64,000 nt of DNA from an uncultured Alphaproteobacteria bacterium (GCA_934246625.1 CAKQHZ010000001.1:434964-498963); one strand, 5' to 3'. Counted from the stretch's first letter, positions 33,666 through 63,615 are shown. A program made the numbers and translations. Notes: a model not told the origin generated them from the letters alone.

Positions 33666-33785
33666 TTGAAACCTCCTTGGTTAGTTGAACATACTTTATA
33701 TATAGCTTTTTTTTAGGAGTTTTTCAATATAAATAATTTTTGATTTTTATCTATTTTTATGTTATTATTGAAAATAAAGGAAAGA

Positions 33786-35114
33786 ATGGGAATGAAAAAA
33801 ATTTTATGTTTTTTGATGGTTTTTACTTTTGCCGTTGAGGGCTTTTCTGCTCCACGAAAGAAGGCTGGCTCTTCTAAACGTGTAGCAACAGCAGGTAAGA
33901 TAAGGACTGCTTCTTCAACCACAATAACGGCCACAAATTCAACAGAGGAAGATTCTTTTGAATCTTGTATGGATAATATTTGTAAATCAGAACTTTATGA
34001 AGATAAGGGTAGATGTAGATGTTCATCTCAACTTGGAAGAATTGAAAAGGTTCTTCGTGATATTGAAAAAATCCAAAACCAAGCAGATGAAGATAATAAG
34101 TTGATGGAAACTTTGATGAATGTTTCAAATACTGCAAATGTAGATGATACTGTTGGAAGTGTTTATGATAATATTAACAGTATTGAAAAAAAGGCAAAAA
34201 CTATTTCTGCAAGGGCTGTGGATAAAGATTTACTTGTGATGGAAGGATTGCCTTTGTATGAAGTAGGATTAAAGAAATGTAAGGGCTTTTTGGATACACT
34301 TTCATCAAAAGATAAGGATAAAAAGAAAGAAGAATATACAAAACTTATTGAAGGAGATTGTTCTGCTTATACAACTATTTTAAAAGAAAAGGCAGATAGT
34401 GCACAAAATCTTTTGGTGCAAGCACAAAAAAATCGCGAAAAGTTTGATGAACAGGAATATAAAAAGCGTAATCAACTTGATACTAATGCTTGTTATGTAG
34501 AATATGAAGCATGTGCAAAAACCGAATGTGGCACAAACTTTAAGTATTGTAAGGATAGTGCAAAACAAGCGACCGTCCTTAAAAAGTGTCAAGCTGTGAA
34601 TTATGGTAAATGTGAAGATAATAAAACAACGGTTATTGCCGATGTAAAAAAGTATATTGCAAAGGAGCTTGAAAAGGTAAGATTAGTTGATAATTGTAAG
34701 GCTGCAATGGGTCATCTTCAAAATGGAAAATGTTTGTTTAAGGTTATGTATATTGCAGATAAATGTTCAAGTGGTAGTGGTTGTGGATCTTCTCAAGTTG
34801 TATGGGCGACACCACGTCAAAAATTCAAATGTGATGATACACGCGGTAGTTTTAAAGAGCTTATTGCTGGATGTTATGAAAGTTGTTATATTATTGGACC
34901 AAATGATGAAAAGATTTATAAGGGAACAAACCATAGTGATAATATGGGTGGTCAAATTGTTGGTGCAATATTTTCTTTGGGTATAAGTGTTGCACATACA
35001 CTTCCTGGATGTGTAGAAAAAAAGAATATTGATACTTTCTATACTCCTGCGGCTCCTGATGGTTGGGGCGAAGATGGTTATCCAACGAATCCAGAATATA
35101 AGGGAATTTTATAA
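33786..35114 (+). CDS. Secreted Cys-containing coiled-coil protein (about 442 aa) with post-signal KR/S/T-rich tract
   Basis: Signal peptide MGMKKILCFLMVFTFAVEGFSA, then PRKKAGSSKRVATAGKIRTASSTTITATNSTEED. About 28 Cys. Start chosen at ATG 33786 (SD AAGGAAAG) rather than the upstream ATG 33759, which lacks an SD. Confidence 0.65.
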   Translation: MGMKKILCFLMVFTFAVEGFSAPRKKAGSSKRVATAGKIRTASSTTITATNSTEEDSFESCMDNICKSELYEDKGRCRCSSQLGRIEKVLRDIEKIQNQADEDNKLMETLMNVSNTANVDDTVGSVYDNINSIEKKAKTISARAVDKDLLVMEGLPLYEVGLKKCKGFLDTLSSKDKDKKKEEYTKLIEGDCSAYTTILKEKADSAQNLLVQAQKNREKFDEQEYKKRNQLDTNACYVEYEACAKTECGTNFKYCKDSAKQATVLKKCQAVNYGKCEDNKTTVIADVKKYIAKELEKVRLVDNCKAAMGHLQNGKCLFKVMYIADKCSSGSGCGSSQVVWATPRQKFKCDDTRGSFKELIAGCYESCYIIGPNDEKIYKGTNHSDNMGGQIVGAIFSLGISVAHTLPGCVEKKNIDTFYTPAAPDGWGEDGYPTNPEYKGIL

Positions 35115-36452
35115 ATGAAAAAATTTTTAGTATTTGTTGTTTCTTTTGTGGTTGTATTAGGTAGTTTTTTTGATGTGGCTTTTTCTCAAAGAGCAAGGAG
35201 AAGACAAGCATCATCAAGAAAAACAAAACGTGCTGGGAATATTAAAAGGGCGGCAACTTCTGGTGGAAGTGGGGCAAAATCTTCTGGAAATACAAAAAAG
35301 GCAACTGGTTCAAAATCAAAAAGTAAAAGTTCCTCTTCTTCAAAAAGTGGGTCTTCCTCCTCCTCTTCATCATCATCATCTTCTTCTGATGAAGGGTTGT
35401 CAGCTGAACTTAAATGTCTTCAACAAAATCTTTCTTCTCTTTTAGGAGATAAATGTAAGTTTGTTGTGGATTCTGATATAACTTCTGCTTTGGAAGGAGA
35501 AGATTTATATTGTGTTTATAATTATAAGGATAGTGGTAAAACCTCAAGTGTTTATAATTATTATTTGAATGCTTATTATGGTGTTTCAGAAACATCTGTA
35601 AAGTCAGATACTTCCATCGTTAATGTGAAAAATAGTTCTAAAAATGCACTTAAGTATTATCAATATTTGATTGATGAAATTGCAAATGGAACATTAAAGG
35701 AAAGTAAAATTCTTGATAGTGTTACTGAAAAGGTTTTGGAAAATTCAAATGTTGCAAATGATGTGCAAGGTGTTATTGAAAAAAAAAGTGTTGAAACTGT
35801 GCCATTATCAATGAGTATTGTTTCTTCGGATTTGGAAAATTGCACAAAGGCGACGAAGGCAATTTTAAAAGAGTGTGGTGCGATTGGTAATCAAACAGTT
35901 AAAAAGAAAATTTCTGAAAGTTGCACCGCTTATAATGCAGTATTGTTAAAACTTGCTGGTAATAAAAAGACAGAAGCTCTTGGTTTCGAGGGTGAAATTA
36001 TAAATGCATTGAAGGAACGTGCAAATGCAGACTTTTATGATTATAAAGAGCTTGTTGAACAACAGGCTGAAAAGTTGAAACTTGATGAACAATATGCAGA
36101 AACACAAAAGAAAACAAAGCTTTTGACACTTAAGAATAAGCGTGATGATACTGCAAGTAAATTGGTTGAATTGCGAAATAGGATAAAAGGACTTAATTCG
36201 GATGATTCTGCAAAGGAAACATTTGAAAGTCAGGCAAATACTTATGCAAGCTCACTTTGTCTTTTGGATCAACAAATTTCAAGTTTGGATAGCACTTATA
36301 AACCATCTGATAATTTAGCAAAGTGTTCAGATGATGATAAAAAAAATGATAGTGATAAAAAAGATGTAGATAAAAATAAAACATCAGAAAGCGGAAATAC
36401 TTCTTCTGGTTCAAATGATACCGCTGGTAAAGCTAATATGGATGCAAAATAA
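35115..36452 (+). CDS. Secreted protein (445 aa) with a KR-rich tract, a poly-Ser run and coiled-coil regions. Translationally coupled to the upstream gene.
   Basis: ATG overlaps the upstream stop (TAAATG). Signal peptide, then QRARRRQASSRKTKRAGNIKRAATSGG..., [29 protein letters not shown]. Confidence 0.65.
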   Translation: MKKFLVFVVSFVVVLGSFFDVAFSQRARRRQASSRKTKRAGNIKRAATSGGSGAKSSGNTKKATGSKSKSKSSSSSKSGSSSSSSSSSSSSDEGLSAELKCLQQNLSSLLGDKCKFVVDSDITSALEGEDLYCVYNYKDSGKTSSVYNYYLNAYYGVSETSVKSDTSIVNVKNSSKNALKYYQYLIDEIANGTLKESKILDSVTEKVLENSNVANDVQGVIEKKSVETVPLSMSIVSSDLENCTKATKAILKECGAIGNQTVKKKISESCTAYNAVLLKLAGNKKTEALGFEGEIINALKERANADFYDYKELVEQQAEKLKLDEQYAETQKKTKLLTLKNKRDDTASKLVELRNRIKGLNSDDSAKETFESQANTYASSLCLLDQQISSLDSTYKPSDNLAKCSDDDKKNDSDKKDVDKNKTSESGNTSSGSNDTAGKANMDAK

Positions 36453-36829: not shown

Positions 36830-37906
36830 ATGTTTATGGGGATTGTTGCTTTTATTATATTGATTCCAATAGTGGTTTTCGTTCACGAGTTCGGACATTT
36901 TCTTTTCGCACGAATCAATGGCGTTAAGGTCGAGTCTTTTTCAATAGGTTTTGGTATGAAACTTTTTGGTTGGCGTGATTCTTTTGGCACAGAATGGAAG
37001 GTTTGTTTGGTTCCGCTGGGTGGATATGTGAAAATGTTGGGACAATCCGATACTCCTGAAACTTCTGAACAAAAGCAAGCAAATAGAAAAAAACTTTCAA
37101 AAAAGGAAAAGTCCGAAAGTTTTGAATTTAAAAAGCGTTATCAAAAGGCATCTATTGTTTTTGCAGGTCCGTTGTTTAATTTTATTTTGGGTATTTTGGT
37201 TTTCTTTTGTCTTTTCTTTTTTATTGGAATGGCAAAGTATTCACCCGTTATACATAGTGTTGTAAAGGAATCTCCTGCGGTGAAAGCTGGGCTTAAAAGT
37301 GGTGATAAATTGATTAGTCTTGGCAGTAATAAAATCGAAATTGCATCTGATGTGTCAAAATTTATGAAGGAGGCAACTGGTAAGCCTATGCCAATAGTTG
37401 TTGAACGAGATGGTAAAGTTTTAAAATTTTCTATTACACCAAAAAAAAGTGATGGAAAGTTTTTATTGGGAATTGTTTATGCTCCAAAATTTGAAAATTA
37501 TACAAAGGTTGGATTTATTGATGCCGTTAAAAATTCATATAATCAAACCTCAACTATTGTTGTGGAAACTGTGAAATCATTGGGTGAAATGATTATTGGA
37601 AAACGTTCATCAAAGGATTTGGGTGGTATGATTTCTATTGCTCAGATTTCAGGTTCTGCTTTTGAAAATGGATTTTATTCATTTATGTATTTGATGGCAT
37701 TTATTTCTATTAGTTTGGGGCTTTTTAATTTGTTCCCTATACCTGTGCTTGATGGAGGATATTTATTTATTTATATAATAGAAGGAATCATAAGACGAGA
37801 TTTACCAGAAAAATTAAAAGAAATAATGTTTTTAATTGGTTTTTGGTTTATTATATTCCTTCTTTTGCTTTCTAATTATAACGATATTGTAAGGTTGCTA
37901 AAGTAA
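36830..37906 (+). CDS. rseP: RIP zinc metalloprotease RseP (site-2 protease, 358 aa)
   Basis: HEFGHFLFAR (HExxH) in the first TM helix, PDZ domain, and LDGG motif (PIPVLDGG) near the C-terminus. Confidence 0.85.
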   Translation: MFMGIVAFIILIPIVVFVHEFGHFLFARINGVKVESFSIGFGMKLFGWRDSFGTEWKVCLVPLGGYVKMLGQSDTPETSEQKQANRKKLSKKEKSESFEFKKRYQKASIVFAGPLFNFILGILVFFCLFFFIGMAKYSPVIHSVVKESPAVKAGLKSGDKLISLGSNKIEIASDVSKFMKEATGKPMPIVVERDGKVLKFSITPKKSDGKFLLGIVYAPKFENYTKVGFIDAVKNSYNQTSTIVVETVKSLGEMIIGKRSSKDLGGMISIAQISGSAFENGFYSFMYLMAFISISLGLFNLFPIPVLDGGYLFIYIIEGIIRRDLPEKLKEIMFLIGFWFIIFLLLLSNYNDIVRLLK

Positions 37907-40179
37907 TGAAGAAGTTTGTAAGTTTTGTTTTGGGATTTATGTGTGTCGGCCTTTCTTCTGTAAAGGCTGGTGTATTAAAGGATATTAAAGTTGTTGGTAA
38001 TGAGAGAATTCATTCTGATATGATAAAAAATTTCTTATCAATAAAAATTGGTGATGAAGTTAATGAAAAGGTTTTAAATAAAAACCTTAATATCCTTTAT
38101 AGATCAGGGTTTTTTAATAATATTAAAATTGATGAAAATGATGGTGTCCTTGTAATAAAGGTTTCTGAAAATCCTGTTATAAATAGTGTGGCATTAGAAG
38201 GTAATTCATCAGTAAAAGATGACGATTTGAAAAAAGGTTTGCAAACAAGAAGTAGGGCTATATTTTCTCCAGCAACAATAAAGCAAGATGTTGAAAATAT
38301 AAAAACTATGTATAAAAGGTTGGGCTATTTTAAGGCTTCTGTTGATGCAAAGGTGATTAAAAAAAATGACAATAGATATGATGTTGTTTTTGAAATAAAT
38401 GAAGGTGATAAAGCATTTATTAAAAAAATTGAAATAAATGGAAATGAAAGTTTTTCTTCCTCTCAATTACAAGATGTGATTATGAGTAAGGAATATGCTT
38501 GGTGGAAATTTATGGAAATGTTTGATACCTATGATGAAGACAGAATTTTATATGATACCGAGCTTCTTCGAAATTATTATGTATCCCAAGGATTTTTGGA
38601 TTTTGAAGTTGTTTCCTATACATCAAAAATGGATTTGAGTGAGAAAAATTTCTTTGTTAAATTTAATTTAAAAGAAGGTAAGCGTTATAAAGTTGGTAAT
38701 GTTTCAATTAACTCCCAGATACCAGATTTGAATATTGAAAAATTGCAAAAGAAAATTATTCTTCCAACTGGGATTTGGTATGATGAAAATTTGGCAAAAA
38801 AATCTGTGTCTGCTTTGGCTTCACAAATGGGTGAAGATGGATTTGCATTTGTGGATATTGAAATTATCAGAAAACCAAATAAGGAAACTGGGGTTGTCGA
38901 TGTTATTTTTGATATTCAAAATTCGTCAAAGGCTTTTATAAATAAAATTGAAATAAAAAATAATACACGAACCTATGAAAATGTGATAAGACGAAATCTT
39001 GCATTTGATGAACAAGATATTTTTAATTCCAATAAGTTAAAACAATCAGAACAAAATTTGATGGGACTTGGCTATTTTGATAATGTGAAATTTGTTCCAA
39101 AGCCAGTTGCTGGGACTCCTGATAAAGTTAATGTTGATGTTAATGTTCAGGAAAAATCAACTGGTGAACTTTCTTTGGGTGCAGGTTGGTCAAGTATCAA
39201 TAAGGGATTCTTTGAATTTGGCATAAAGGAAACTAACTTTATGGGAAAGGGGCAAACTTTGGGCTTTACCTCTACATTTTCAGGAAGACAAAATAATTTT
39301 AGTTTATCATTTGTTGAACCTTATTTATTTGATAGGGATTTGATGGGTGGTGTTGATGCTTACTATAATCAATATAAATACTCTTCTACTTATGGTTATG
39401 ATATTAATGGTATTGGATTGGCTCTTAAACTTGGGTGGAGTTATACTGATAAACTTTATCACAGATTAAGATTTTCAGCAAAAAATGAAAAAATGACCAA
39501 CATTGCCGACAATTTGCCAAATGATTTGCGTGTTGGTATTGGTGAATATAATGTATTTAAGGTTGGTCAAACTTTGACCTTTAAGGACCAATTTGTTGAT
39601 TATGTAAATGATACCAAAAATGGTTATGTAATTTCATTGTCAAATGAGTATGCTGGTTTTGGTGGCGATAAGTATTTCATTAAAAATGATTTGTCATTTA
39701 AGCAATCATTTTCTTTTTGGGATAATGAGTGGATGTTCGGTATTTTGGTTGATGCTGGAAAAATACATTCTTTGAACGAAAAGGTTTTAAGTCGAAGCGA
39801 TAGATATCTTTTGGGTGGTGATAGTTTGAGAGGTTTTGAGTATGGTGGTATTGGTGCAAGAAATAAATTAAATCCAACCTATGCTTATGGTGGTGATTGG
39901 GTTGTAAATGGAACTTTCCAACTTAACTTCCCTATTGGTATTCCAAAGAAATATAAAATTTCAGGATATGTTTTCTATGATTGGGGAAAACTTGGAAGCC
40001 CAGATTTGAAAAATGACGAATATATTATGTATAGTGGAAAGATAAGAACTTCTGCTGGATATGGAATTTTATGGAATTCTCCAATCGGAGCAATCAATCT
40101 TTCTTGGTCTAAAGCCTTAGAATATGAAGATTATGATGAACTTCAAAGATTTAGATTTTCTATTGGAAGTTCGTTTTAA
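37906..40179 (+). CDS. bamA: Outer membrane protein assembly factor BamA (757 aa)
   Basis: Five POTRA-like repeats followed by a 16-strand barrel. C-terminal ...RFRFSIGSSF. rseP-bamA-skp synteny. Confidence 0.95.
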   Translation: MKKFVSFVLGFMCVGLSSVKAGVLKDIKVVGNERIHSDMIKNFLSIKIGDEVNEKVLNKNLNILYRSGFFNNIKIDENDGVLVIKVSENPVINSVALEGNSSVKDDDLKKGLQTRSRAIFSPATIKQDVENIKTMYKRLGYFKASVDAKVIKKNDNRYDVVFEINEGDKAFIKKIEINGNESFSSSQLQDVIMSKEYAWWKFMEMFDTYDEDRILYDTELLRNYYVSQGFLDFEVVSYTSKMDLSEKNFFVKFNLKEGKRYKVGNVSINSQIPDLNIEKLQKKIILPTGIWYDENLAKKSVSALASQMGEDGFAFVDIEIIRKPNKETGVVDVIFDIQNSSKAFINKIEIKNNTRTYENVIRRNLAFDEQDIFNSNKLKQSEQNLMGLGYFDNVKFVPKPVAGTPDKVNVDVNVQEKSTGELSLGAGWSSINKGFFEFGIKETNFMGKGQTLGFTSTFSGRQNNFSLSFVEPYLFDRDLMGGVDAYYNQYKYSSTYGYDINGIGLALKLGWSYTDKLYHRLRFSAKNEKMTNIADNLPNDLRVGIGEYNVFKVGQTLTFKDQFVDYVNDTKNGYVISLSNEYAGFGGDKYFIKNDLSFKQSFSFWDNEWMFGILVDAGKIHSLNEKVLSRSDRYLLGGDSLRGFEYGGIGARNKLNPTYAYGGDWVVNGTFQLNFPIGIPKKYKISGYVFYDWGKLGSPDLKNDEYIMYSGKIRTSAGYGILWNSPIGAINLSWSKALEYEDYDELQRFRFSIGSSF

Positions 40180-50922: not shown

Positions 50923-51888
50923 ATGTCAAATGAAGTTTTAAATTCAGCTCTTAAATATCTGGCGAATTGGTATATGCAATCTAATATAGAAGAAGTTGCT
51001 GTAAATAGGGCTGGTGAAGTATGGCTTAGACTTCGTGGAAAGCGTGAAATTCCGTGGGTTATGGAGCCTGATAAACATTTATCAAAACAATATTTGACCG
51101 ATATAATGAATATTATTGCAAATACTTATGAAGTGCCTTTTGACCCATCTGTGGGAATACCTGTTGTATATGCAACTTTGCCTGGCGACCATAGATTTTC
51201 TGGGATTGCAGGGAAAAATGTTTTATATGATAATGATGATATAGAAGGGGGAATTGCCCTTGCAATTAGAACGAAAAAGGATAGTGTCGATTTTAATTTT
51301 GCCGATTATGGCCTTGTAAAGGGTGAGGAGCTTAAAAAACTTTCTTGTGAGGAGGAAGTACTTTCATCTGACCCATATCAAAGATTGATGGATTTTATTA
51401 AACGTGGCGACCATATTTTGATAAGTGGTGCAACTGCCACTGGTAAGACAACTTTTTTGAATAATATTTTGAAGTTGCTAAGTCCAAATCTTCGTGTGAT
51501 TACGATTGAAGATTCAAGAGAATTGATTGTCCCACAAAAAAATCATCTTCATTTGTTGTTGTCAAGAACGACTCAAACAAATATGTTTTCATATAAAGAT
51601 GTGATTGATTTAGTTGTTCGTATGACACCAGATGCAATTATGGGTGGTGAAATTTCAACGGAAAATGCTGGTGCAATTTGGGAATTGATGGGAACTGGAC
51701 ATAAGCATTTCTATGCAACTATACATGCAGAATCTGTTGAAGGAGCGTATGAGGCCTTTATTGATAGAATTTTGCATACCTTTCCAGAATTGGATCAGGA
51801 AAAAACATTGGCTGAAATGAAAAAGAAACTTCACGTTGTGCAAATTGGTCGTGAAGGAAATATCAGAACAATTACAGAAATTGCATAA
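50923..51888 (+). CDS. virB11: Type IV secretion system ATPase VirB11 (321 aa)
   Basis: Walker A GATATGKTT, Asp/His boxes (…VITIEDSRELIV…), size and N-terminal domain typical of VirB11/TrbB. Confidence 0.85.
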   Translation: MSNEVLNSALKYLANWYMQSNIEEVAVNRAGEVWLRLRGKREIPWVMEPDKHLSKQYLTDIMNIIANTYEVPFDPSVGIPVVYATLPGDHRFSGIAGKNVLYDNDDIEGGIALAIRTKKDSVDFNFADYGLVKGEELKKLSCEEEVLSSDPYQRLMDFIKRGDHILISGATATGKTTFLNNILKLLSPNLRVITIEDSRELIVPQKNHLHLLLSRTTQTNMFSYKDVIDLVVRMTPDAIMGGEISTENAGAIWELMGTGHKHFYATIHAESVEGAYEAFIDRILHTFPELDQEKTLAEMKKKLHVVQIGREGNIRTITEIA

Positions 51889-52248
51889 TTATTTACCAAA
51901 AGGTTTTAGTGAAAATAACACAACAAGAGGATTTTCAGATTCAATTGTAAGTGTTAGTGATTCATCTTCGCGTTTAAATGATATTGCATTTGTTTTTTCA
52001 GAAATTTTATTCCAACCCAATGATTTTAATGTTTGGGTATAAAAGTTTAAAAATTCATCTTTTGTTAGGGTTGCACTTGAAACATATTGTTCAATAATTC
52101 TTATTTCTTCATTGTCATAGGAGAATGGCTCTTCCTCGGTTAATGTGTCTTGAAGTGGGATTTCTTCGAATGCAGACATAAAACCTTCAGCCCTTGCACA
52201 AAGGGAAAATGTTAAACATAGTAAAATTGTAAATAAAAATTTTTTCAT
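51889..52248 (-). CDS. Small secreted/lipoprotein-like hypothetical (119 aa) downstream of virB10
   Basis: Signal peptide MKKFLFTILLCLTFSLCARA. Its stop codon abuts the convergent virB11 stop. Confidence 0.45.
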   Translation of the reverse strand: MKKFLFTILLCLTFSLCARAEGFMSAFEEIPLQDTLTEEEPFSYDNEEIRIIEQYVSSATLTKDEFLNFYTQTLKSLGWNKISEKTNAISFKREDESLTLTIESENPLVVLFSLKPFGK

Positions 52249-52258
52249 TTTTCACCTA

Positions 52259-54352
52259 TTATTGTCCATATTTATGGTCAGGATTTGCATCTTCAATCAT
52301 TTGATCCATTTCATCTTCAATTCTTAACATAACATCGTTTTGAAGAAATACCATAATTCGTGTTCCCGCAGCAACGGTAAATGGAATGCTTGTTTGTGCA
52401 CTTTGGTCAATTAACTTTTGCATAGTTGTTTTCCAATTTTGCTCGATTTCCAATTTCATTTTATCCTTTGATGACATATTTGCTATTGTTTGTGTATCAG
52501 TTGGGGACCAGCCATATTCAGGTTGGTTTTCTGTATTAATTACGTCAGATACATTTTCTCCATCATCATTTATAAATGTATCTAATGCTTGATATGTTCC
52601 ATCGGAACGTTTTACACGTGTTACAAATTGAGAAGAAGTTGGGAATAATGCTTCCATTGCAACAGGAAGAACAGAATAAAGTAATGGTTTTACGAATAAA
52701 TCACGCATATATTCGGTATCGTTTTTACCTGCTACACCCTGACGACCTTGGGCATCTGCAGTATAGTTAACAACTTGAGTTAAATCAAATTCGGCACCAT
52801 CTGGACGTATAAGTCGGTCCCATTCTATGCTGATTTTTTCAATTTCTTGAAGACCTGCACCTTTAGGAGCGGTTGCTTTTCCAATAAGTTGTGAGCCAGC
52901 AGGGACAATAATTGTGCGTCCATCACCACCATAAACATTTCGTTCAACCGTTGCAACGGCAGGTGTTTCGTTTTCAAAATTTGTTCCATCATTTTCAGCA
53001 TAATCTATATTGCCGAAGTAAATTGGTCTGTTTAACACAGCTGGAATTGGTTTTGATTGACGAAGAACGTATCTTTCATCCTTTGGCATAGAAGATACTT
53101 GACCAGTGCTTGTTATAGTAAATGGAATAAGTGAGTTTTTTTGTTTGCCAATTATGTTTAATGGGTCGTCTGCCTTATATAAATCATAGTCAACATCTTT
53201 TCCACCATAACCTTCTTGTTTCACAGCAAGGCGGTTGTTCCAAACATCTTCGAAATTTGGATTAAAGTTTTCGGAATTGATTGTTTGCATTACCTCGTCC
53301 AAAACAGGAAGAGTTAGTTCAATTCTTTTTTCTTCGGATTTCTTTTTATCAAATACGGCACCCTTTCCAATGATTTTTCCAGTTGCAGTTTCAAGGACCA
53401 TTCCGTCTTCTTGAAGTGAGCCGATTATTTTTGAACAATTTGGTGAAAATACATCATTATTTGATTGAACCCAACCAATAAATGTTCCAGAAAAATCATA
53501 GGCTTTACTTGCATATTTCTTGCAATCGCTTGGATATACAGTTCTTTTTTCTTGTGCCTTTGGTGTGATTGCAGGAGCCACTGCATTTGTGAATTCTTCG
53601 ACTTCTTCCTCGTCTGCTGGTTCTATATCTTCATTATCATAGATTTCTTCATCATCATCTTCTTCAAAAAATTCATCTACTTTCTCTTGTTGTTGAGGTT
53701 GTGTTTGCACAGGTGCAGGTTTTTCTATTGAAGAGATTGATAAATTGACCTTGAAACTTTTTTCGGGTGAATTTTCGTTAGTATTATTTAGTTCATTATA
53801 TTTTATAAGTATAAATATATTTTTATTTTCAACCTTTGTAGGGGTCCAAACAACATTTATTATACATCCAGATTCTGGTGTAATTGATGCTCTTTCAGTG
53901 CAATCTTGGTCAAAGCCAAGTCCATTTACAGATGTTGATAATGAAATATTGTTAATTTTGATTGGATTATTTGCAACAGATAACATAATAGAGTTAAATG
54001 TTTCATTTCCAATAATTATATTTTCAAATTTTATATTTTGTGGGTCTGCAGTTAAAATAGGTGAAATATAAGTGAAATTTTGAGTTGTTTCCTTTTTTGT
54101 TTGTGCTGGGGTAGATGGAGTTTGCTCTATGGTTTCAATCTTTTTATTTGTTTGGTTTGCTGTGATAATAGCTCCTAATACAAAAATGCCAAGCATTACA
54201 AATGCGATAAAAAGCAAAATGATATTTGTCTTTTTTGTGGCAAGTTCAGATTTGCTTTTTTTATCGTTTGGAAGCATTTCCGCATTTTCTTCTGATGTTG
54301 AAGAAGATGGAGTATTTGTTGCTTTACCCTTTTTCTTAAATAAATCTACCAT
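52259..54352 (-). CDS. virB10: Type IV secretion system protein VirB10/TrbI with an unusually long (about 450 aa) N-terminal/periplasmic linker region (697 aa total)
   Basis: N-terminal cytoplasmic tail plus TM helix. Acidic/Pro-Gln-rich linker. C-terminal barrel motifs RTIIVPAGSQLIGKA...ISIEWDRLIRPDGAEFDL...DAQGRQGVAGKND...IPFTVAAGTRIMVFLQNDV. Confidence 0.75.
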   Translation of the reverse strand: MVDLFKKKGKATNTPSSSTSEENAEMLPNDKKSKSELATKKTNIILLFIAFVMLGIFVLGAIITANQTNKKIETIEQTPSTPAQTKKETTQNFTYISPILTADPQNIKFENIIIGNETFNSIMLSVANNPIKINNISLSTSVNGLGFDQDCTERASITPESGCIINVVWTPTKVENKNIFILIKYNELNNTNENSPEKSFKVNLSISSIEKPAPVQTQPQQQEKVDEFFEEDDDEEIYDNEDIEPADEEEVEEFTNAVAPAITPKAQEKRTVYPSDCKKYASKAYDFSGTFIGWVQSNNDVFSPNCSKIIGSLQEDGMVLETATGKIIGKGAVFDKKKSEEKRIELTLPVLDEVMQTINSENFNPNFEDVWNNRLAVKQEGYGGKDVDYDLYKADDPLNIIGKQKNSLIPFTITSTGQVSSMPKDERYVLRQSKPIPAVLNRPIYFGNIDYAENDGTNFENETPAVATVERNVYGGDGRTIIVPAGSQLIGKATAPKGAGLQEIEKISIEWDRLIRPDGAEFDLTQVVNYTADAQGRQGVAGKNDTEYMRDLFVKPLLYSVLPVAMEALFPTSSQFVTRVKRSDGTYQALDTFINDDGENVSDVINTENQPEYGWSPTDTQTIANMSSKDKMKLEIEQNWKTTMQKLIDQSAQTSIPFTVAAGTRIMVFLQNDVMLRIEDEMDQMIEDANPDHKYGQ

Positions 54353-54373: not shown

Positions 54374-55888
54374 TTATTGAGTCCTTACAACACTGCATGG
54401 AACACTTTGAAGTGAAAGTTTTTGACATATTTCATCAGCAACTTCTATCTTTGCAAATGGTCCAATTCTTAGGCGATAAAATTCTCCGCCGTAATATCTT
54501 TGTTGTCCGATTTCATCAACACCACTTGTTTCAACAGAATAGAAAGGTGTGTATTCGTCAAGCCATGGAAGTTTTTCAGTTAATTCAAGCCATTTGTTTT
54601 CAAGGTCGACAACTGACTTTCCTTTAAAGACTTCTACACTTACGTTTTGTGAATTTTGTTTTACAAGTGGAACGTAGTGGTTTGGAAGCACAGATGCGTT
54701 TGTCTTTGTTTTTGGTAAAAGTGAGTTATATATAATTTCATTTTCTTGAGATGTATAAGGTTGCATACCTCCCATAGGATAACCACCAACCATATTTGTC
54801 ATAGGGTATGACAAGTTTTGTGGATACATATATGCACCAGTTGTCATATCTCCAGCATAGCCAGTTGTAAGCATCTCTTGTCCAGACATATAATTTCCAG
54901 ATAATGTTGCGTTTGCATCACCAATGTTTCCAGCAACTGCAACCAAATCTTGTGGAGGTGGTGGATTAGAGAGCAAGTATGGTTTTGAACGAAGTTTTAT
55001 ACAAACAATTCTTTGTCCGTTTCGTAAAACCAAATCGCCGATAGCTTCAACAACAAGAAGACGGCTTTGTGGACCTTCGGTTCGTGAACCTACAGGAGTT
55101 TCGCCACCTTCGACCAATAATGAAACTACAGGTCGTTGATTCATATTTAATGCCTTTTCACCGAAGTCAATGTATGTGAAAATTTGATCACGCCATACAC
55201 GTTCAGGTGCAATTACGTAATCATCAGGATTTGGAACGAATACATCTAAATCAAAACGAAATTCTGTTGGGTCAACATTTATACTTTTTATCCAACCGAA
55301 ATCTTCGCCTTCCCAATCATTATCACCCACATCTTTGAAACTTTGTCCGCCCATCATTGATTTTGATGATACAAAGTTGTTTGATGAACCAGATGAAGAT
55401 GCACCGTTGCTTCCTTTTCTGTATTTATATGGAACAGAAATATCAATTACAGAAGAGGTAATTTTTTCAGAATTAAGTGGTTCTGATTTTAGGTAAAAGA
55501 CATATTTATTTCCACTGTTTCCGAAAATGAATAGGTTTGTATCAGCCATTGCACGACCATCAACAGGAGAAATCATAAATGTATTTTTTTCAACTGGACG
55601 ACCATCAAAGAAATCCTTGTCCCCGACATAAGCGTCCTTTATGGTTTCCCATTCTGGGAAGTTAATGATTGTTAACATACCATCACGAAGTTTGATAGGC
55701 ATAACTGATCCTGGTTCCCATTGTATTTTTTGGAAACCTGGTTTTGTTTGGTTTTCTCCCATATTTTGCATTGGGTTATCCCATGCGTTTTGTGTTCCAA
55801 AACCAACCCCAGGAACAACTTCTTGAGAATAAACTGGAGCTGTTAAGAGTGAAAATATTAAAGGTAAAATTTTAAAAATATTTTTCAT
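54374..55888 (-). CDS. virB9: Type IV secretion system protein VirB9 fused to a C-terminal SPOR-like domain (504 aa)
   Basis: N-terminal VirB9/TrbG signature (IQWEPGSVMPIKLRDGMLTIINFP...TNLFIFGNSGNKYVFYLK). C-terminal 80 aa (...FYSVETSG...FYRLRIGPFAKIEVADEICQKL...VPCSVV) resemble a SPOR peptidoglycan-binding domain. Confidence 0.8.
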   Translation of the reverse strand: MKNIFKILPLIFSLLTAPVYSQEVVPGVGFGTQNAWDNPMQNMGENQTKPGFQKIQWEPGSVMPIKLRDGMLTIINFPEWETIKDAYVGDKDFFDGRPVEKNTFMISPVDGRAMADTNLFIFGNSGNKYVFYLKSEPLNSEKITSSVIDISVPYKYRKGSNGASSSGSSNNFVSSKSMMGGQSFKDVGDNDWEGEDFGWIKSINVDPTEFRFDLDVFVPNPDDYVIAPERVWRDQIFTYIDFGEKALNMNQRPVVSLLVEGGETPVGSRTEGPQSRLLVVEAIGDLVLRNGQRIVCIKLRSKPYLLSNPPPPQDLVAVAGNIGDANATLSGNYMSGQEMLTTGYAGDMTTGAYMYPQNLSYPMTNMVGGYPMGGMQPYTSQENEIIYNSLLPKTKTNASVLPNHYVPLVKQNSQNVSVEVFKGKSVVDLENKWLELTEKLPWLDEYTPFYSVETSGVDEIGQQRYYGGEFYRLRIGPFAKIEVADEICQKLSLQSVPCSVVRTQ

Positions 55889-55959: not shown

Positions 55960-56604
55960 TTATTTTATGTATTTGTATTCTTCAATGACAAAACCAAGAG
56001 GATTTTTCCACATTGATTTTGTATCCTTTTTATATGGAGTTTCAAGAAACTTTGCCTTTATTTGGATTTTTTTAATTTCTGTTCGTTTGTTTAATCCGTA
56101 TTCGTCTGTTATGTTTAGGGTTGCTAATGCTTCCCATAAATTTAGTTTTGAATGATATTGAATGTCATCAGGATTTATTGAAACGGTTATTATTTCCTTA
56201 TTTGGATTTAAAATACCGTTTTTGAAATCTGAACTTGTGTAAAAAGATTTGTATGTGTTTTCTGTGCTCATAAAAAATAAATTGCTGTCTATACCCCAAA
56301 GTTGTCGCATTTTAACTGGATTTGTGTATAGGCTTTCACGTTCAATAATGTATTGAATTATGTATGATTTTGCAATTTGATAGCCCACAGAATTTTGTGA
56401 AATGTTTAAATTTGATGCACGTTGGATATATAAAGTTTCGATATTTTTATCTTGTGCTTCGACAAAAAAAGCCTCCCACTTTGTTTGTGGAGCAATTTTA
56501 TTTAATGAAAATATAAGGACAATGTTGAGTATTATGCTTAGGGCAATAAAAATACCAAAAATTCTTAAAAGCCATAAATATCTTTGTTCGTCAATTTTTT
56601 TCAA
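55960..56604 (-). CDS. virB8: Type IV secretion system protein VirB8 (214 aa)
   Basis: Short cytoplasmic N-terminus, single TM (LWLLRIFGIFIALSIILNIVLIF), NTF2-like periplasmic domain ending ...KNPLGFVIEEYKYIK (VirB8 NPLGF signature). Confidence 0.7.
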   Translation of the reverse strand: MKKIDEQRYLWLLRIFGIFIALSIILNIVLIFSLNKIAPQTKWEAFFVEAQDKNIETLYIQRASNLNISQNSVGYQIAKSYIIQYIIERESLYTNPVKMRQLWGIDSNLFFMSTENTYKSFYTSSDFKNGILNPNKEIITVSINPDDIQYHSKLNLWEALATLNITDEYGLNKRTEIKKIQIKAKFLETPYKKDTKSMWKNPLGFVIEEYKYIK

Positions 56605-56671: not shown

Positions 56672-58225
<1,554 letters not shown>

Positions 58226-58228
58226 GCT

Positions 58229-58609
58229 GTGAAACTTAAAATTATTGCACCGTTGGAAATGTATGAAGTAGATGATGTTGATGTTGTCTATGCCGAAGGT
58301 ATGGAAGGCTATTTTACAATACTTCCTTTGCATGCGGACTATACAACTTCTTTGGAAACATCGGTGTTTAGATATAAAAAAGGTGGAAAAGAATTTATTT
58401 TTGCAGTTGATGGTGGTGTTCTTGTAAAAATGGGTGATGAAGTTCGTATTGCAATAAGGCATATTATAAAGGGCGATAGTCTTTTGGATTTGAAAAAACA
58501 AATGCAAAAAGAGTTTTTTGAAATTGATGATAATGAAAGAAAAACACGAACTGCTCTTGCTTCATTAGAGGGAAATATTGCAAAACTTTTGTTGGAATTA
58601 AGTGAGTAG
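58229..58609 (+). CDS. atpC: ATP synthase epsilon subunit (GTG start)
   Basis: 126 aa. Beta-sandwich plus helical hairpin pattern. Immediately follows atpD with SD AAGAGGA. Confidence 0.85.
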   Translation: MKLKIIAPLEMYEVDDVDVVYAEGMEGYFTILPLHADYTTSLETSVFRYKKGGKEFIFAVDGGVLVKMGDEVRIAIRHIIKGDSLLDLKKQMQKEFFEIDDNERKTRTALASLEGNIAKLLLELSE

Positions 58610-58617
58610 AGGTTGAT

Positions 58618-58962
58618 ATGGTAAAAGAGGGAAATATTCAAAATAAAAATAGTTCCAAAATTGATAAGGATATGGAAATTACTGTGTCAAAAAAAATTGA
58701 TAGGAAACTTCTTGCTGGTCCTAAAAAAAATTTTGTGATACGTGCATTTTCTTTGTTCGGGCTTGTTGGGTGGAGTATTGTAATACCTGCTGTGCTTTGT
58801 GCATATATTGGTATGTGGTTTGATGAAAAGTATAAATCTGCATCAATTTCATATACTTTTTATTTTATATTATTTGGACTTTTGGCTGGCTGTTATAATG
58901 CTTTTCGTTGGATAAAAAGAGAAAAAGAAAGATTGGATAAGGAGGATAGTTATTATGGATAA
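58618..58962 (+). CDS. atpQ: N-ATPase accessory membrane protein AtpQ-like (AtpZ/AtpI-like, 114 aa, 2 TM)
   Basis: Small two-helix membrane protein between atpC and atpB, as in N-ATPase operons. Confidence 0.5.
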   Translation: MVKEGNIQNKNSSKIDKDMEITVSKKIDRKLLAGPKKNFVIRAFSLFGLVGWSIVIPAVLCAYIGMWFDEKYKSASISYTFYFILFGLLAGCYNAFRWIKREKERLDKEDSYYG

Positions 58963-59269
58963 AATTCTTCATTATTTAGTAATTATTTTTGCAACTGGTT
59001 TGTTTAGTGTTATTTATTTTGCTATGCTTAAATCTGGTATGACAAAGGTTTTACAAAGAAGTAGGGAGCTTAATTATGTTGAAATGAATTATTTGTATGG
59101 TTCGTTTTTGTTAAGGTTTTTCCTTGCTGGTGTTTTTTTCTTTTTTATATTAAAATATTATAAACGTTTAGATGAAATTATTTTGGTTGTGGCAACCTTT
59201 GTTTTTATAAGATATTTGGAAATAAAATTTGAAAAATCAAAAATAAAAAAGGGAAATAATAATCAATGA
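58955..59269 (+). CDS. atpR: N-ATPase accessory membrane protein AtpR-like (104 aa, membrane-embedded Arg)
   Basis: Hydrophobic protein with an Arg inside the predicted helix (LLRFFLAG). Overlaps atpQ and atpB by 8 and 4 nt. Confidence 0.5.
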   Translation: MDKILHYLVIIFATGLFSVIYFAMLKSGMTKVLQRSRELNYVEMNYLYGSFLLRFFLAGVFFFFILKYYKRLDEIILVVATFVFIRYLEIKFEKSKIKKGNNNQ

Positions 59270-60033
59270 ATATAAGTCCAGATGAAATTGTATTATTTAA
59301 AATTCCAATGATGCTTTTTGGAAAGTTCTTTTATATTGATATAAATATGACTTTGGTTGGCACATGGGGAATTATGATTTTTATGTTATTATTTTTCCGA
59401 TATTTAACAAGAAATTTTAATAGCTCATTTAAACTTTCACCTCTTCAAAATGGTATAGAAGTTGTTGTAAAGTTTGTAAGGGACCAAATTGAAGGTATGA
59501 TGGGAAGAAAGGCCGATAAATTTATTCCAATTATTGGAAGTTTGTTTATTTTTATTTTGATTTCAAATTGGAGTTCTTTGCTTCCAATACCTTTTTTTGT
59601 TAATGGAGAGATTGAGTGGTATATGCCTCCAACAGCATCAATTTCAACTACCGCTGGGCTTTCAATTTGTGTGATGAGTTCGGTTGTAGTGTTTGGTATG
59701 GCAAAACTTGGCTTTTTTGCTTATTTTAAAAGATTTTTTGAACCAGTGTTTTTCCTTTTTCCACTTAATGTTTTAAGTGAGATTTCAAATGGTGTTTCAT
59801 TGGCGATAAGACTTTATGGTAATATTATGAGTGGAGGATTGTTAGCAACAATACTTTTTGCTTTGGCTCCGCTTTTTTTACCGGGACTTATAAATATTTA
59901 TGGGCTTCTTGCTGGAACTATACAACCATATATTTTTTCTGTGCTTGCTATGGTGTATATAAGTGCTGGTATGGGAGATCCAACGGAATCTGAGGAAGAA
60001 GAACTTATGAAATTACAACTTTCAAGGATTTAA
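59266..60033 (+). CDS. atpB: ATP synthase a subunit
   Basis: Five-TM a-subunit pattern with the conserved Arg in ...SLAIRLYGNIMSGG. Confidence 0.85.
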   Translation: MNISPDEIVLFKIPMMLFGKFFYIDINMTLVGTWGIMIFMLLFFRYLTRNFNSSFKLSPLQNGIEVVVKFVRDQIEGMMGRKADKFIPIIGSLFIFILISNWSSLLPIPFFVNGEIEWYMPPTASISTTAGLSICVMSSVVVFGMAKLGFFAYFKRFFEPVFFLFPLNVLSEISNGVSLAIRLYGNIMSGGLLATILFALAPLFLPGLINIYGLLAGTIQPYIFSVLAMVYISAGMGDPTESEEEELMKLQLSRI

Positions 60034-60071
60034 TTTAACTTTATAATAACAAAAAGAAAGGAAGGTATAAT

Positions 60072-60353
60072 ATGGATATGGGTTTAGTTTGGATTGCAGT
60101 TGCATCTGTGATTGGCGCTTCTTTTGCTGTGGGTCTTGGTGGTATTGCTCCATCACTTGCAGAAGGTGGTGCCGTTAAGCAAACTTTGGCATCTATGGCT
60201 CAACAACCAGATGAAGCAAGTAATTTAAGAAGCACTTTGTTTGTTTCTTTGGCTATGCTTGAATCTACTGCTATTTATGCGTTGTTAGTAGCTATGATTT
60301 TGATTTTTAGTAATCCATTTTGGAACTATGCAGTTGCAAATGTTGCAAAATAA
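60072..60353 (+). CDS. atpE: ATP synthase c subunit (93 aa) with Na+-type binding motif
   Basis: Helical hairpin. Second helix ...AMLESTAIYALLVAMILIFSNPF carries the E-S-T...Y ligands seen in Na+-binding c-rings (compare I. tartaricus [22 protein letters not shown]). Confidence 0.9.
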   Translation: MDMGLVWIAVASVIGASFAVGLGGIAPSLAEGGAVKQTLASMAQQPDEASNLRSTLFVSLAMLESTAIYALLVAMILIFSNPFWNYAVANVAK

Positions 60354-60378
60354 AATTTTTAAAATTTAAGGATTTATT

Positions 60379-61170
60379 ATGAATATAAATTGGAGCACTG
60401 TTTTTTTTCAGATTGTAAATTTCTTACTGATTATTTGGATACTTAAAAAATATCTTTTTAAGCCTGTTTTGATGTCTATGGATAAGCGTGAAAAGGCTAT
60501 TCAATCACGACTTAAAGATGCAGAAGAGGCAAAAATTTTGACTGAAAAAGAACGAGAGAATCTTAAGGCAAAAATTGCTCAAATTGAAAAAATGAAAAAT
60601 GATGTGTTGGCAGAAGCATATAAAAAAGCCGATAATGAACAAGCAATCCTTATTAAAACTTTGAAAGCAGAAATTCAAGGTAAAAGAATTGCTAATGATG
60701 AGCAAATGAGGCAAGAACGAGAAGCTCTTAAATCTTCAATTAAAGATATTGCAGGAGAAACCATTATCAATACGGTTTCTTCTGCTTTGTCAGATTTGGC
60801 AAATGTTAATATTCAAAATGTTATATTGGAAAATTTTACACAAAGACTTTTTTCTGGGGAAATTGAAAAAATTGATGAATTAAAAAAGTTTTATAGGGAA
60901 TTTAATCATATTATTATTAACACATCGTTTGATTTAGATGTGGAAGAAGAAAACAGAATTAAAGAGGCTCTTACAAAACTTTTGGGTGAAGAGGTTAATG
61001 TTGATTTCAGAGTAGATAAATCGATTTTGTGTGGAATAGAGGTTGTTTGTGAATCTCTTTTGATTAGTTTTGGTATGAATACTTATATAAAGGCGTTAAA
61101 AGTAAATCTTGATAATAAGATTGCAGAGTTGACTAAAACAGAAGAACCAGTTGATGCAAATGATGAATAG
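60379..61170 (+). CDS. atpF: ATP synthase b subunit, extended (263 aa); no separate delta gene
   Basis: N-terminal TM followed by a long charged coiled coil. About 100 aa longer than canonical b. Position between c and alpha. Confidence 0.7.
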   Translation: MNINWSTVFFQIVNFLLIIWILKKYLFKPVLMSMDKREKAIQSRLKDAEEAKILTEKERENLKAKIAQIEKMKNDVLAEAYKKADNEQAILIKTLKAEIQGKRIANDEQMRQEREALKSSIKDIAGETIINTVSSALSDLANVNIQNVILENFTQRLFSGEIEKIDELKKFYREFNHIIINTSFDLDVEEENRIKEALTKLLGEEVNVDFRVDKSILCGIEVVCESLLISFGMNTYIKALKVNLDNKIAELTKTEEPVDANDE

Positions 61171-61181
61171 GGGAATATGAA

Positions 61182-62696
61182 ATGCTTACAGAAGTTATTA
61201 AAGATACTTTGAATGATTTGAATGCCGTTTCAAAAGAAACAAAGGCAAGTGTTATTTCAGAAGAAATTGGTGAAGTTATTGAAATTGTCGGTAATGTTGT
61301 AAGGGCAACTGGACTTTCTTCTGTAAAAATGGACGAGCTTGTAAAAATAAAGGATTCTATGGGTATTGTTATCAACCTTAATGAAGATAGTGTTGGTATA
61401 GTTCTTCTTGATAATGCACAAAATATAGAAGCAGGTGAAAAGGTTAAACGCACTGGAAGAATTGCTGATGTGCCAGTTGGTAAAGAATTGCTTGGTAGGG
61501 TTGTTGACCCTCTTGGTAATCCATTAGATGGTGGAAATAAAATTATTACAAAGGACAGATATAATATTGAACGTGAAGCGCATCAAATTATGGAAAGACG
61601 CGAAGTTTCAGTTCCTTTGCAAACTGGACTTAAGGCAGTTGATGCGATTATCCCAATAGGTCGTGGACAACGAGAACTTATCCTTGGGGACAGACAAACA
61701 GGTAAAACAGCATTGGCGGTTGATACTATATTGGCACAAAAAAATACAGGTGTGATTTGTGTTTATTGTGCTATTGGAAGTAGGGCTGATAGTGTCGCAA
61801 AAGTTATTGATGTTTTGAAGCAAAATGATTGTATGAAAAATACTATTGTTGTTGTTGCAAGTGGTGAAAGTTCTCCTGGGCTTTTGTATATTGCACCGTA
61901 TGCTGCAACTTCTATGGCAGAATATTTTATGGAACGTGAGGGAAAAGATGTTCTTATTATCTATGATAATTTGACTTTCCATGCACAGGCATATAGACAG
62001 CTTTCTTTGTTCCTTCGTAGGGCTCCTGGTAGAGAGGCTTATCCAGGTGATATTTTCTATGTTCATTCCAGATTGTTGGAACGTTCAACTCGATTGAGAG
62101 AAGAATTTGGCGGTGGTTCTTTGACTGCATTGCCAATATGTGAAACTTTGGCTGAAAATATTTCTGCATATATTCCAACAAACCTTATATCCATTACTGA
62201 TGGACAAATATTTTTAACAAATACTTTGTTCCAAAAGGGTATTATTCCAGCAATCAATATAGGTATTTCGGTTTCTCGTGTGGGGTCAAAGGCACAACTT
62301 CCTGCTTATAAAGCAGTGGCTGGAGATATGAAAATCTCATATTCTCAATTTGAGGAGTTAGAGGCGTTTTCAAAATTTGGAACACAGCTTGATGAAGATA
62401 CAAGAAAAACTTTGCGACGTGGTGAAAGAATTAGAGAAATTTTAAAACAACCTCAATACAAACCTCTTCGTGCATCAGAACAAATTGTGGTGATTTATGC
62501 AACAAATATTGGTGTGTTTGATGATGTGGATTTGGATAAACTTGCATTGGTGCAAGATGAACTTATTAAACGTGCCAATATAGAAATTAAAAATGTTTTA
62601 GATGATATTGATAATGGTTCAAAACTTCATGACAGCTTTAAAGAAAAAATTAAAAAATTGGCTGAAGATGTGGCAAAAAAATATATAGAGGAATAA
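61182..62696 (+). CDS. atpA: ATP synthase alpha subunit
   Basis: Walker A GDRQTGKTA, 504 aa, conserved alpha-subunit core. Confidence 0.95.
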   Translation: MLTEVIKDTLNDLNAVSKETKASVISEEIGEVIEIVGNVVRATGLSSVKMDELVKIKDSMGIVINLNEDSVGIVLLDNAQNIEAGEKVKRTGRIADVPVGKELLGRVVDPLGNPLDGGNKIITKDRYNIEREAHQIMERREVSVPLQTGLKAVDAIIPIGRGQRELILGDRQTGKTALAVDTILAQKNTGVICVYCAIGSRADSVAKVIDVLKQNDCMKNTIVVVASGESSPGLLYIAPYAATSMAEYFMEREGKDVLIIYDNLTFHAQAYRQLSLFLRRAPGREAYPGDIFYVHSRLLERSTRLREEFGGGSLTALPICETLAENISAYIPTNLISITDGQIFLTNTLFQKGIIPAINIGISVSRVGSKAQLPAYKAVAGDMKISYSQFEELEAFSKFGTQLDEDTRKTLRRGERIREILKQPQYKPLRASEQIVVIYATNIGVFDDVDLDKLALVQDELIKRANIEIKNVLDDIDNGSKLHDSFKEKIKKLAEDVAKKYIEE

Positions 62697-62697
62697 A

Positions 62698-63615
62698 ATG
62701 CAAACTCTTGAAGGACTTAAACGCAGAATTAAAACGACTACTTCTCTTAAGGATATTGTAAGTAGTATGAAAACTTTGTCTGCGGTAAGTGTGGGACAAT
62801 ATGAAAAGTCAACAAAGGCATTGGAAAATTATGTCGATGTCATTGAACAAGGTTTGCAAGTTGTTTTGAAGGATATTACTTTCCCTAATGTAAAAGAAAA
62901 GCCAATTCAAAATCAAAAGGTAATTGCAATTTTGATTGGTTCGGACCAAGGATTGGTTGGTAAGTTTAATAAGGTTATTTCTGATTATGCCTTTAGATAT
63001 TTTAGGGATAATAATATTGATAAAAAAGATATAACTCTTATTGTTGCAGGACGAAGTTTGGCACCAAAGGTTTTAAGTGAAGGTTGGAATATTGATACTT
63101 TGTTTTCTATGCCAAGTTCTGTGAAAATGATGGTTGCAGTTGCAAAAAAGATTATTTTGCGATTAAAGGATATCGCTTTTAAAGATGATAAAGATGCTTT
63201 ATTAAATTTTGCAAAAAATAACCTTAAAGTTTTGGTTTTCTTTAATAAAAAAATTGATGCAGTAAGTTTTGGGCAAAATATGTATCAGCTTTTGCCTGTG
63301 GATATAAATTATTTGAAAACAGTGAAATTAAGAAAGTGGAATACTAAGCAAATTCCAATGTATAATGCAAATAGTGCAAAGTTGTTTTCATCATTTTTAA
63401 GACAATTATTGTTTGTGAATATTTATCGAATTATTTCACAAAGTTTGTCTGCGGAACATTTTACTCGTATGATAACAATGCAAAATGCTGAAAAAAATAT
63501 TGATGAACATTTGGAAGAAATGAATCTTGAATATCAACAAAGACGTCAAACAGAAATTACAAATGAACTTTTAGATGTTGTAATTGGTGCAGAAGTTTTA
63601 AAATCCAAAAAGTAA
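62698..63615 (+). CDS. atpG: ATP synthase gamma subunit
   Basis: 305 aa. N- and C-terminal coiled-coil helices (MQTLEGLKRRIKTTTSLKDIVSSMKTLSAVS..., ...ITNELLDVVIGAEVL). Follows atpA with 1-nt spacing. Confidence 0.85.
   Translation: MQTLEGLKRRIKTTTSLKDIVSSMKTLSAVSVGQYEKSTKALENYVDVIEQGLQVVLKDITFPNVKEKPIQNQKVIAILIGSDQGLVGKFNKVISDYAFRYFRDNNIDKKDITLIVAGRSLAPKVLSEGWNIDTLFSMPSSVKMMVAVAKKIILRLKDIAFKDDKDALLNFAKNNLKVLVFFNKKIDAVSFGQNMYQLLPVDINYLKTVKLRKWNTKQIPMYNANSAKLFSSFLRQLLFVNIYRIISQSLSAEHFTRMITMQNAEKNIDEHLEEMNLEYQQRRQTEITNELLDVVIGAEVLKSKK

Follow-up and report, generated by a model that had tools for sequence, protein, structure and literature searches.

A 64,000-nucleotide stretch of DNA from an uncultured Alphaproteobacteria bacterium (GCA_934246625.1 CAKQHZ010000001.1:434964-498963; hereafter the window, meaning the whole stretch analysed) encodes a type IV secretion system (T4SS) protein, VirB9, whose C-terminus is a SPOR domain by sequence, predicted fold and structural matches. 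This VirB9-SPOR architecture is real, widespread and undescribed in the literature searched; wall-binding modules on other machines, such as the AMIN domains of PilQ, are already known. Pfam, AlphaFold2, Foldseek and synteny together bear out the proposal of an initial annotation that this VirB9 ends in a genuine SPOR-fold domain within one open reading frame (ORF), and they place the gene in a virB8-virB9-virB10 operon. The integrity of the gene, the identities and predicted fold of its domains, the disorder of its linker, the conservation of the fusion and of the exposed face of the SPOR sheet, and the operon context were all shown. The gene and its parts are as follows (pLDDT, predicted local distance difference test).

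54374..55888, (-): whole VirB9-SPOR gene, 504 codons plus stop.
55826..55888, (-): signal peptide, residues 1-21 (MKNIFKILPLIFSLLTAPVYS, followed by QE), without a lipobox Cys; a putative Sec signal, from the sequence and a model helix at residues 4-15.
55439..55825, (-): VirB9 N-terminal domain, residues 22-150; pLDDT 85-96, Foldseek, Pfam CagX.
55304..55438, (-): Ser/Gly-rich inter-domain linker, residues 151-195; poorly conserved.
54974..55303, (-): VirB9 C-terminal domain, residues 196-305; CagX match to residue 298, conservation, low pLDDT in the monomer model.
54647..54973, (-): disordered tether rich in Pro, Gly, Asn, Tyr and Met, residues 306-414; pLDDT <50 over most of its length.
54377..54646, (-): SPOR domain, residues 415-504; Pfam, AlphaFold2, Foldseek, conservation.

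The ORF is uninterrupted from an ATG start through 504 amino acids (aa) to the C-terminal end ...FYSVETSGVDEIGQQRYYGGEFYRLRIGPFAKIEVADEICQKLSLQSVPCSVVRTQ. Pfam CagX/VirB9 (PF03524) matched residues 52-298 with 71.1 bits (cut-off 34.2), covering model positions 3-196 of 198. The cut-off of the NCBIfam VirB9 equivalog TIGR02781 was missed (53.4 bits vs 217.7); the protein is therefore a divergent VirB9 and not the P-type conjugative equivalog. In Foldseek searches the N-terminal domain matched TrwF/VirB9 of R388 (7o3t_B, template modelling (TM) score 0.81; 8rt6_v, TM 0.82), and the full-length model matched VirB9 of X. citri (6gyb_B, E 2.5e-13) and of R388. This N-terminal domain is the I-layer domain in solved T4SS core complexes. 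The linker that follows it retains 15% identity in distant relatives. The VirB9 C-terminal domain matched its TrwF counterpart (7o3j_B) weakly in Foldseek. No other part of the protein is as conserved as this domain, which retains 77% identity in relatives that are ~43% identical and has a constant length; Cys296 near its end is invariant. VirB9 C-terminal domains are reported to fold upon VirB7 binding, which would fit the low pLDDT of the monomer model. The initial annotation had assigned the N-terminal 270 aa to a conventional VirB9 and about 230 aa to an extension. The VirB9 part reaches to about residue 305; the extension resolves into a ~110-residue linker and a 90-residue SPOR domain.

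The C-terminal domain was recognised as SPOR by both profile and fold. Pfam SPOR (PF05036) matched residues 464-502 with 26.5 bits (cut-off 21; E 8e-6) when the whole protein was searched and scored 30.1 bits, above the same cut-off, on the C-terminus alone; 19 of 20 diverse C-termini of the family were matched as well (best E 2.9e-9). From 71 sequences, AlphaFold2 predicts the beta-alpha-beta-beta-alpha-beta fold for residues 395-504 with core pLDDT >90, and the full-length model reproduces this fold. The predicted elements are beta1 (416-423), alpha1 (426-445), beta2 (448-454), a long loop, beta3 (469-478), alpha2 (481-493) and beta4 (499-502). The PDB matches with the best geometry were RlpA (6i09, TM 0.70, root-mean-square deviation (rmsd) 3.1 Å), CwlC (1x60, TM 0.74) and DedD (6ztg). 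Ribosomal protein S6 ranked similarly in Foldseek, but with TM ~0.4 and rmsd 6-7 Å. The two 'FY' strands with an intervening helix, on which the domain had initially been recognised, are present as strands beta2 and beta3; they are joined by a 14-residue loop, while one helix precedes beta2 and the other follows beta3.

The fusion is conserved well beyond the window. A protein search returned >1,800 matches, of which the best 120 were taken for description; these are mostly ~500 aa and full-length, and many carry both Pfam domains. More than 120 full-length homologues were found at 42-99% identity. They are labelled at NCBI merely as 'TrbG/VirB9 family', and databases detect both domains automatically. 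In a scan of one genome per species, at least 279 species-level genomes contained a relative, and the best 80 loci were analysed. All are from metagenome-assembled genomes (MAGs) of gut samples (termite, ruminant, chicken, horse and human), the MAG labels being Alphaproteobacteria, 'Rickettsiales' or Candidatus Enterousia; the latter belongs to the order Rs-D84, whose genomes are mostly <1 Mb and whose members are suspected to depend on a partner (PMC12306168). In 80/80 loci virB9 is one ORF ending in a SPOR domain, and the single-frame tblastn match reaches residue 504 in every one and begins at residue 1-30 in 79. The gene is followed by virB10 in 78/80 loci, and virB8 was detected upstream in ~30/80.

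Conservation within the extension is uneven. In distant relatives the SPOR domain shows 39% identity against 15% for the linker. Between residues 306 and 404 the tether varies from 66 to 118 residues among relatives at ~15% identity, and this floating length and low identity are as expected of a tether. An exhaustive search with a profile of the SPOR region yielded further VirB9-SPOR proteins of 450-621 aa; they form a second large clade (>1,400 matches) with the same residue signature, one member of which, P0233, is ~36% identical overall to the VirB9-SPOR of the window. A SPOR-only profile run against a word-indexed database found short fragments only, mostly on short contigs, and no other architecture. 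As judged from these comparisons, the fusion is fixed across the whole order and the second large clade and is under purifying selection; it is conserved in thousands of sequences, all of uncultured Alphaproteobacteria of the gut.

Ten residues (E419, Y471, R472, L473, R474, G476, P477, C488, C498 and R502) are 100% conserved in 83 sequences. Strand alternation places E419, R472 and R474 on the exposed face of the sheet, and they make up the most conserved surface of the VirB9-SPOR domain. The exposed sheet face is the glycan-binding surface of the RlpA, FtsN and DamX SPOR domains, where a Gln in beta1 contacts N-acetylmuramic acid (MurNAc) and N-acetylglucosamine (GlcNAc); this Gln (RlpA Q270, FtsN Q251, DamX Q351) is the only highly conserved glycan contact among SPOR structures (PMC6895207). 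A basic patch on beta3 (FtsN R285, RlpA R309) binds the lactyl group of MurNAc, and FtsN R285 is required for septal localisation (PMC6895207). An hhalign alignment of the family profile with FtsN SPOR (1UTA), which covered the second half alone with a probability of 9% and was used for residue equivalence only, pairs R472 with FtsN R285, F470 with W283 and C498 with C312. Cys488 in alpha2 and Cys498 at the start of beta4, both invariant, probably form a disulfide.

We consider it fairly probable, and the most likely function of the extension, that it provides a flexible peptidoglycan tether on each VirB9 that anchors the core complex to the sacculus, and that it may also draw the machine to the division site. 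The two canonical VirB9 domains would build the outer-membrane core complex together with VirB10, and the ~110-residue disordered linker would let the SPOR domain hang in the periplasm, being long enough to reach the wall under the outer membrane. The SPOR domain would then bind the glycan strands of peptidoglycan via its exposed beta-sheet face. The VirB9 ring has about 14 copies in solved minimal systems; with one flexible wall tether per copy, a multivalent ring would fix the core complex to the sacculus. Other SPOR domains prefer denuded (peptide-free) glycans, which are enriched at the septum. Should this preference hold here, VirB9 would be recruited to the septum, and the new pole would form with the machine already in place. 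That the domain binds peptidoglycan, which ligand it prefers and that it targets the septum or pole are inferences. The tether reading gains support because E419, R472 and R474 are conserved on the glycan-binding face, R472 being the equivalent of FtsN R285, and because the wall context fits, with a class A penicillin-binding protein (PBP) in the window and a PBP5-like SPOR enzyme in a related genome (see below).

Several observations weigh against this reading or against the SPOR assignment beneath it. Only the second half of the Pfam SPOR model aligns (positions 36-76); the Foldseek E-values of the SPOR matches are weak (~7e-3 to 1e-2); and neither the SPOR-region sequence alone nor a profile of its family found a sequence match among all PDB chains. 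The SPOR domain is also atypical. At the canonical Gln position all 83 of the 83 VirB9-SPOR sequences have a Glu (Glu419), which could repel the lactyl carboxylate of MurNAc, and ligand specificity may differ. The beta1 motif of VirB9-SPOR reads V-S/A-V-E-V/L, with no 'GAF' motif after the Gln/Glu position. Among 14 aligned distant fusions, one (P0296) has Gln at this position, one has Asp and the rest have Glu. That the Gln and Glu positions are homologous is supported by the Gln retained in P0296 and the Asp of the other fusion, and also by the place of the Glu in beta1, at its fifth residue and facing away from the core. A related genome offers a comparison within the lineage:

L082, 20457-21539, (-): PBP5-like D-Ala-D-Ala carboxypeptidase (Peptidase_S11) with a C-terminal SPOR domain of canonical motif.

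The SPOR domain of this Candidatus Enterousia enzyme keeps the Gln ('GVQFGAFSS...YRVR'). The Glu thus belongs to the subfamily attached to VirB9 and is not a habit of the lineage, and SPOR-based wall targeting is in use in this reduced-genome lineage.

A further step can be offered only tentatively. The SPOR tail would be a positioning device that reads amidase-processed or modified septal glycan and pre-installs the T4SS at the new poles of host- or partner-dependent gut alphaproteobacteria, making a VirB1 hydrolase unnecessary, and the change from Gln to Glu would mark a SPOR subfamily with a distinct glycan preference.

We regard it as unlikely that the SPOR-like domain has been repurposed, with its fold kept and glycan binding lost, as a protein-protein module acting, for instance, on the long N-terminal region of VirB10, on orf119 (a small secreted protein encoded downstream of virB10) or on a neighbouring VirB9. 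An invariant Glu in place of the canonical Gln would fit such a change of role, given that the housekeeping SPOR domain of the same lineage keeps 'VQFGAF'. So would a first half too diverged for Pfam to align, the long beta2-beta3 loop, which is clade-specific with G456 and V457 invariant, and the co-conservation of orf119 in the operon. However, a long, unconserved and length-variable linker is better suited to reaching and binding the sacculus than to a fixed contact between subunits; the basic counterpart of FtsN R285 is invariant; and the Gln in beta1 of the P0296 fusion points to an ordinary SPOR domain that bound glycan as the ancestor.

It is more doubtful still that the SPOR domain replaces a missing VirB7 lipoprotein, a missing VirB1 transglycosylase or both in stabilising and inserting the core complex. 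The initial annotation had remarked that both are lacking nearby. Across the 64-kb window, no small VirB7-like lipoprotein and no VirB1-like protein with a transglycosylase domain came to light, and a lipobox scan of all its small ORFs together with a scan for the 'SPC' motif gave no VirB7 candidate. The product of orf119 was rejected as VirB7, because its homologues have an AxA site for signal peptidase I and lack a conserved Cys. The VirB1 half of the suggestion may yet hold, since pre-installation of the kind mediated by PilQ AMIN domains would, by analogy, make a dedicated hydrolase unnecessary (PMC5285504). Absence from the window nevertheless says little about the genome, because the T4SS genes are scattered (virB3/4 lie 48 kb away). 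Moreover, three loci with the same fusion have VirB7-like lipoproteins adjoining virB8: one of 66 aa at L081 9024-9230 ('LAVSC...KRSPCAC'), one at L083 7215-7367 ('LSGC...KLSPCAC') and one of 57 aa at L020 5543-5716. The lipoproteins of L081 and L083 have the motif '[KR]-x-S-P-C-A-C' in common, which resembles the KSP-Cys motif of Rickettsia VirB7 and of ComB7 (PMC2653234). The disulfide partner of these lipoproteins may be VirB9 Cys296, whose invariance is consistent with that role. Since VirB7-like lipoproteins occur in fusion loci and Cys296 is invariant, we argue that SPOR is an addition to VirB7 and not a replacement for it, and the suggestion that it compensates for a missing VirB7 is not supported.

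An artefact, whether a frameshift, an assembly error or a chance Pfam match on a low-complexity tail, might be read into the short SPOR-only fragments among the database entries (mostly contigs of 0.5-5 kb), but it is rejected as scarcely conceivable, given the intact ORF, the >120 full-length homologues, the SPOR domain at the end of a single-frame ORF in 80/80 loci, the ten invariant residues and the confident fold prediction; the unrecognised frameshift that the initial annotation had allowed for is thus not the case.

The remaining T4SS genes of the window, together with orf119, are the following.

55960..56604, (-): virB8, upstream in the same operon; Pfam VirB8 38.6 bits, synteny in relatives.
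52259..54352, (-): virB10, 697 aa; TrbI domain at residues 456-675 and a long N-terminal extension.
51889..52248, (-): orf119, small secreted protein downstream of virB10; cleavage site AxA followed by EF, no lipobox, no Pfam family.
50923..51888, (+): virB11-like T2SSE ATPase, convergent with the operon; Pfam T2SSE 70.8 bits.
2643-2936, (-): virB3-like gene, 97 aa, in a second T4SS islet 48 kb from virB8-10.
198-2633, (-): virB4, in the same second islet 48 kb from virB8-10.

These genes thus stand in scattered islets, with virB3/4 at 0.2-2.9 kb and virB8-11 at 50.9-56.6 kb, and no duplicated virB8, virB9 or virB4 was seen within the 64-kb window. VirB10 is unusually long. It contains a low-complexity stretch of acidic character and, before the TrbI domain, a weak ASH/Ig-like match at residues 104-177. 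The gene orf119 follows virB10 in many Rs-D84 loci, and its product, whose mature N-terminus is conserved (F-M/I-S-A-F-E-E-I-P-L), may be an unrecognised T4SS component. The virB11-like ATPase shows 64% identity with the T2SSE gene in the T4SS cluster of L081, where the order is virB4, five unknown ORFs, virB8, the 66-aa lipoprotein gene, virB8, virB9-SPOR, a gene for a 2,717-aa protein and virB11. The 2,717-aa protein (L081 11611-19764), which occupies the virB10 position, has weak local similarity to VirB10 of the window. Elsewhere in the window, two adjacent secreted proteins of 451 and 445 aa (33759-36452, (+)) have signal peptides and Arg/Lys/Ser-rich N-terminal regions and gave no Pfam match. 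They were rejected as VirB6 paralogues: apart from the signal peptide no transmembrane segment is predicted in them, and they resemble none of the unknown ORFs of L081 or L083.

Other genes describe the setting. The window encodes a MucR/Ros regulator typical of Alphaproteobacteria (3408-3824, (-)), the class A PBP (19487-21346, (-)), BamA (37906-40179, (+)) and, for lipopolysaccharide (LPS), LpxC, LpxD, a lipid A acyltransferase and LptF/G. It is therefore a chromosomal region of a diderm with a peptidoglycan wall. An ATPase operon (56741-63615, (+)) has the N-ATPase order: beta, epsilon, two small membrane ORFs, a, c, b, alpha, gamma. The small membrane ORFs are AtpQ/R-like (~58.6-59.27 kb), b has an OSCP/delta-like part, and the c subunit (~60043-60320) carries the 'LESTAIY' motif, typical of Na+-binding c rings. 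The ATPase in the published description of Rs-D84 is called F0F1-type (PMC12306168). We read the T4SS of the window as a chromosomal, Rickettsia-like (scattered-islet) system, belonging to a gut alphaproteobacterium with a reduced genome and a relationship to Candidatus Enterousia (order Rs-D84).

It is only partly understood how large secretion machines that span the envelope pass through peptidoglycan and are positioned on it. The usual T4SS answer to crossing this layer is the lytic transglycosylase VirB1. A VirB9 with its own wall-binding domain points to another solution, wall anchoring or septal pre-installation as for type IV pili, and the Glu-for-Gln domain is a natural variant for probing SPOR ligand specificity. 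Although the source organisms of VirB9-SPOR are uncultured, both questions are approachable with standard E. coli septal-localisation and sacculus-binding assays. The analysis also flags a conserved T4SS in the Rs-D84 lineage, which may underlie the proposed partner-dependent lifestyle; the system is not mentioned in the genomic description of Rs-D84 (PMC12306168). A literature search, covering titles and the openings of abstracts for T4SS with SPOR, found no paper linking VirB9 or T4SS core complexes to SPOR domains, and SPOR does not occur in a 2025 review of T4SS diversity.

With known VirB9/TrbG/CagX proteins (X. citri 6GYB, R388 TrwF 7O3T/8RT6, Rickettsia VirB9a) VirB9-SPOR shares the signal peptide, the two beta-sandwich domains and the position between virB8 and virB10. 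Compared with a usual VirB9 it is twice as long, with an extra 45-residue Ser/Gly linker and a 200-residue C-terminal linker plus SPOR domain. The rvh-type (Rickettsiales vir homolog) T4SS has duplicated virB8, virB9 and virB4 genes, expanded virB6 and a VirB7 with a KSP-Cys motif. The distant locus L081 has two virB8 genes, a VirB7-like 'KRSPCAC' lipoprotein and, after virB4, five unknown ORFs. In Rickettsia, VirB9a has 247 aa and VirB9b 158 aa, and the T4SS genes are dispersed as an 'archipelago' of islets (PMC2653234), a scattering over the chromosome in which the window and rvh are alike.

The SPOR domains of FtsN, DamX, DedD, RlpA and CwlC have in common with that of VirB9 the fold, the 'YRxRxGP' motif of beta3 and the Arg equivalent to FtsN R285. 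As in these proteins, the VirB9 domain follows a long disordered linker in the periplasm, and one of its Cys residues aligns with FtsN C312. Its Cys pair (488 in alpha2, 498 in beta4), however, differs from the C252-C312 pair of FtsN. In contrast to SPOR domains of the divisome and of wall enzymes, the VirB9 domain sits on a secretion-machine subunit, has Glu for Gln, lacks 'GAF' and has 14 residues inserted as a beta2-beta3 loop.

Among other envelope-spanning machines, DotK is a confirmed component of the Legionella Dot/Icm core complex. DotK and the type VI secretion proteins TssL/TagL carry OmpA-like peptidoglycan-binding domains; there the OmpA-like module is a protein of its own, unlike the SPOR domain built into VirB9. 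PilQ has AMIN domains that bring the type IV pilus machine to future division sites and hence to new poles (PMC5285504; PMC10653833). Here too a peptidoglycan-binding module is fused to an outer-membrane channel subunit of an envelope-spanning machine. The module has the AMIN fold in place of SPOR, is N-terminal instead of C-terminal and belongs to another machine; by analogy, PilQ is the closest functional precedent for VirB9-SPOR.

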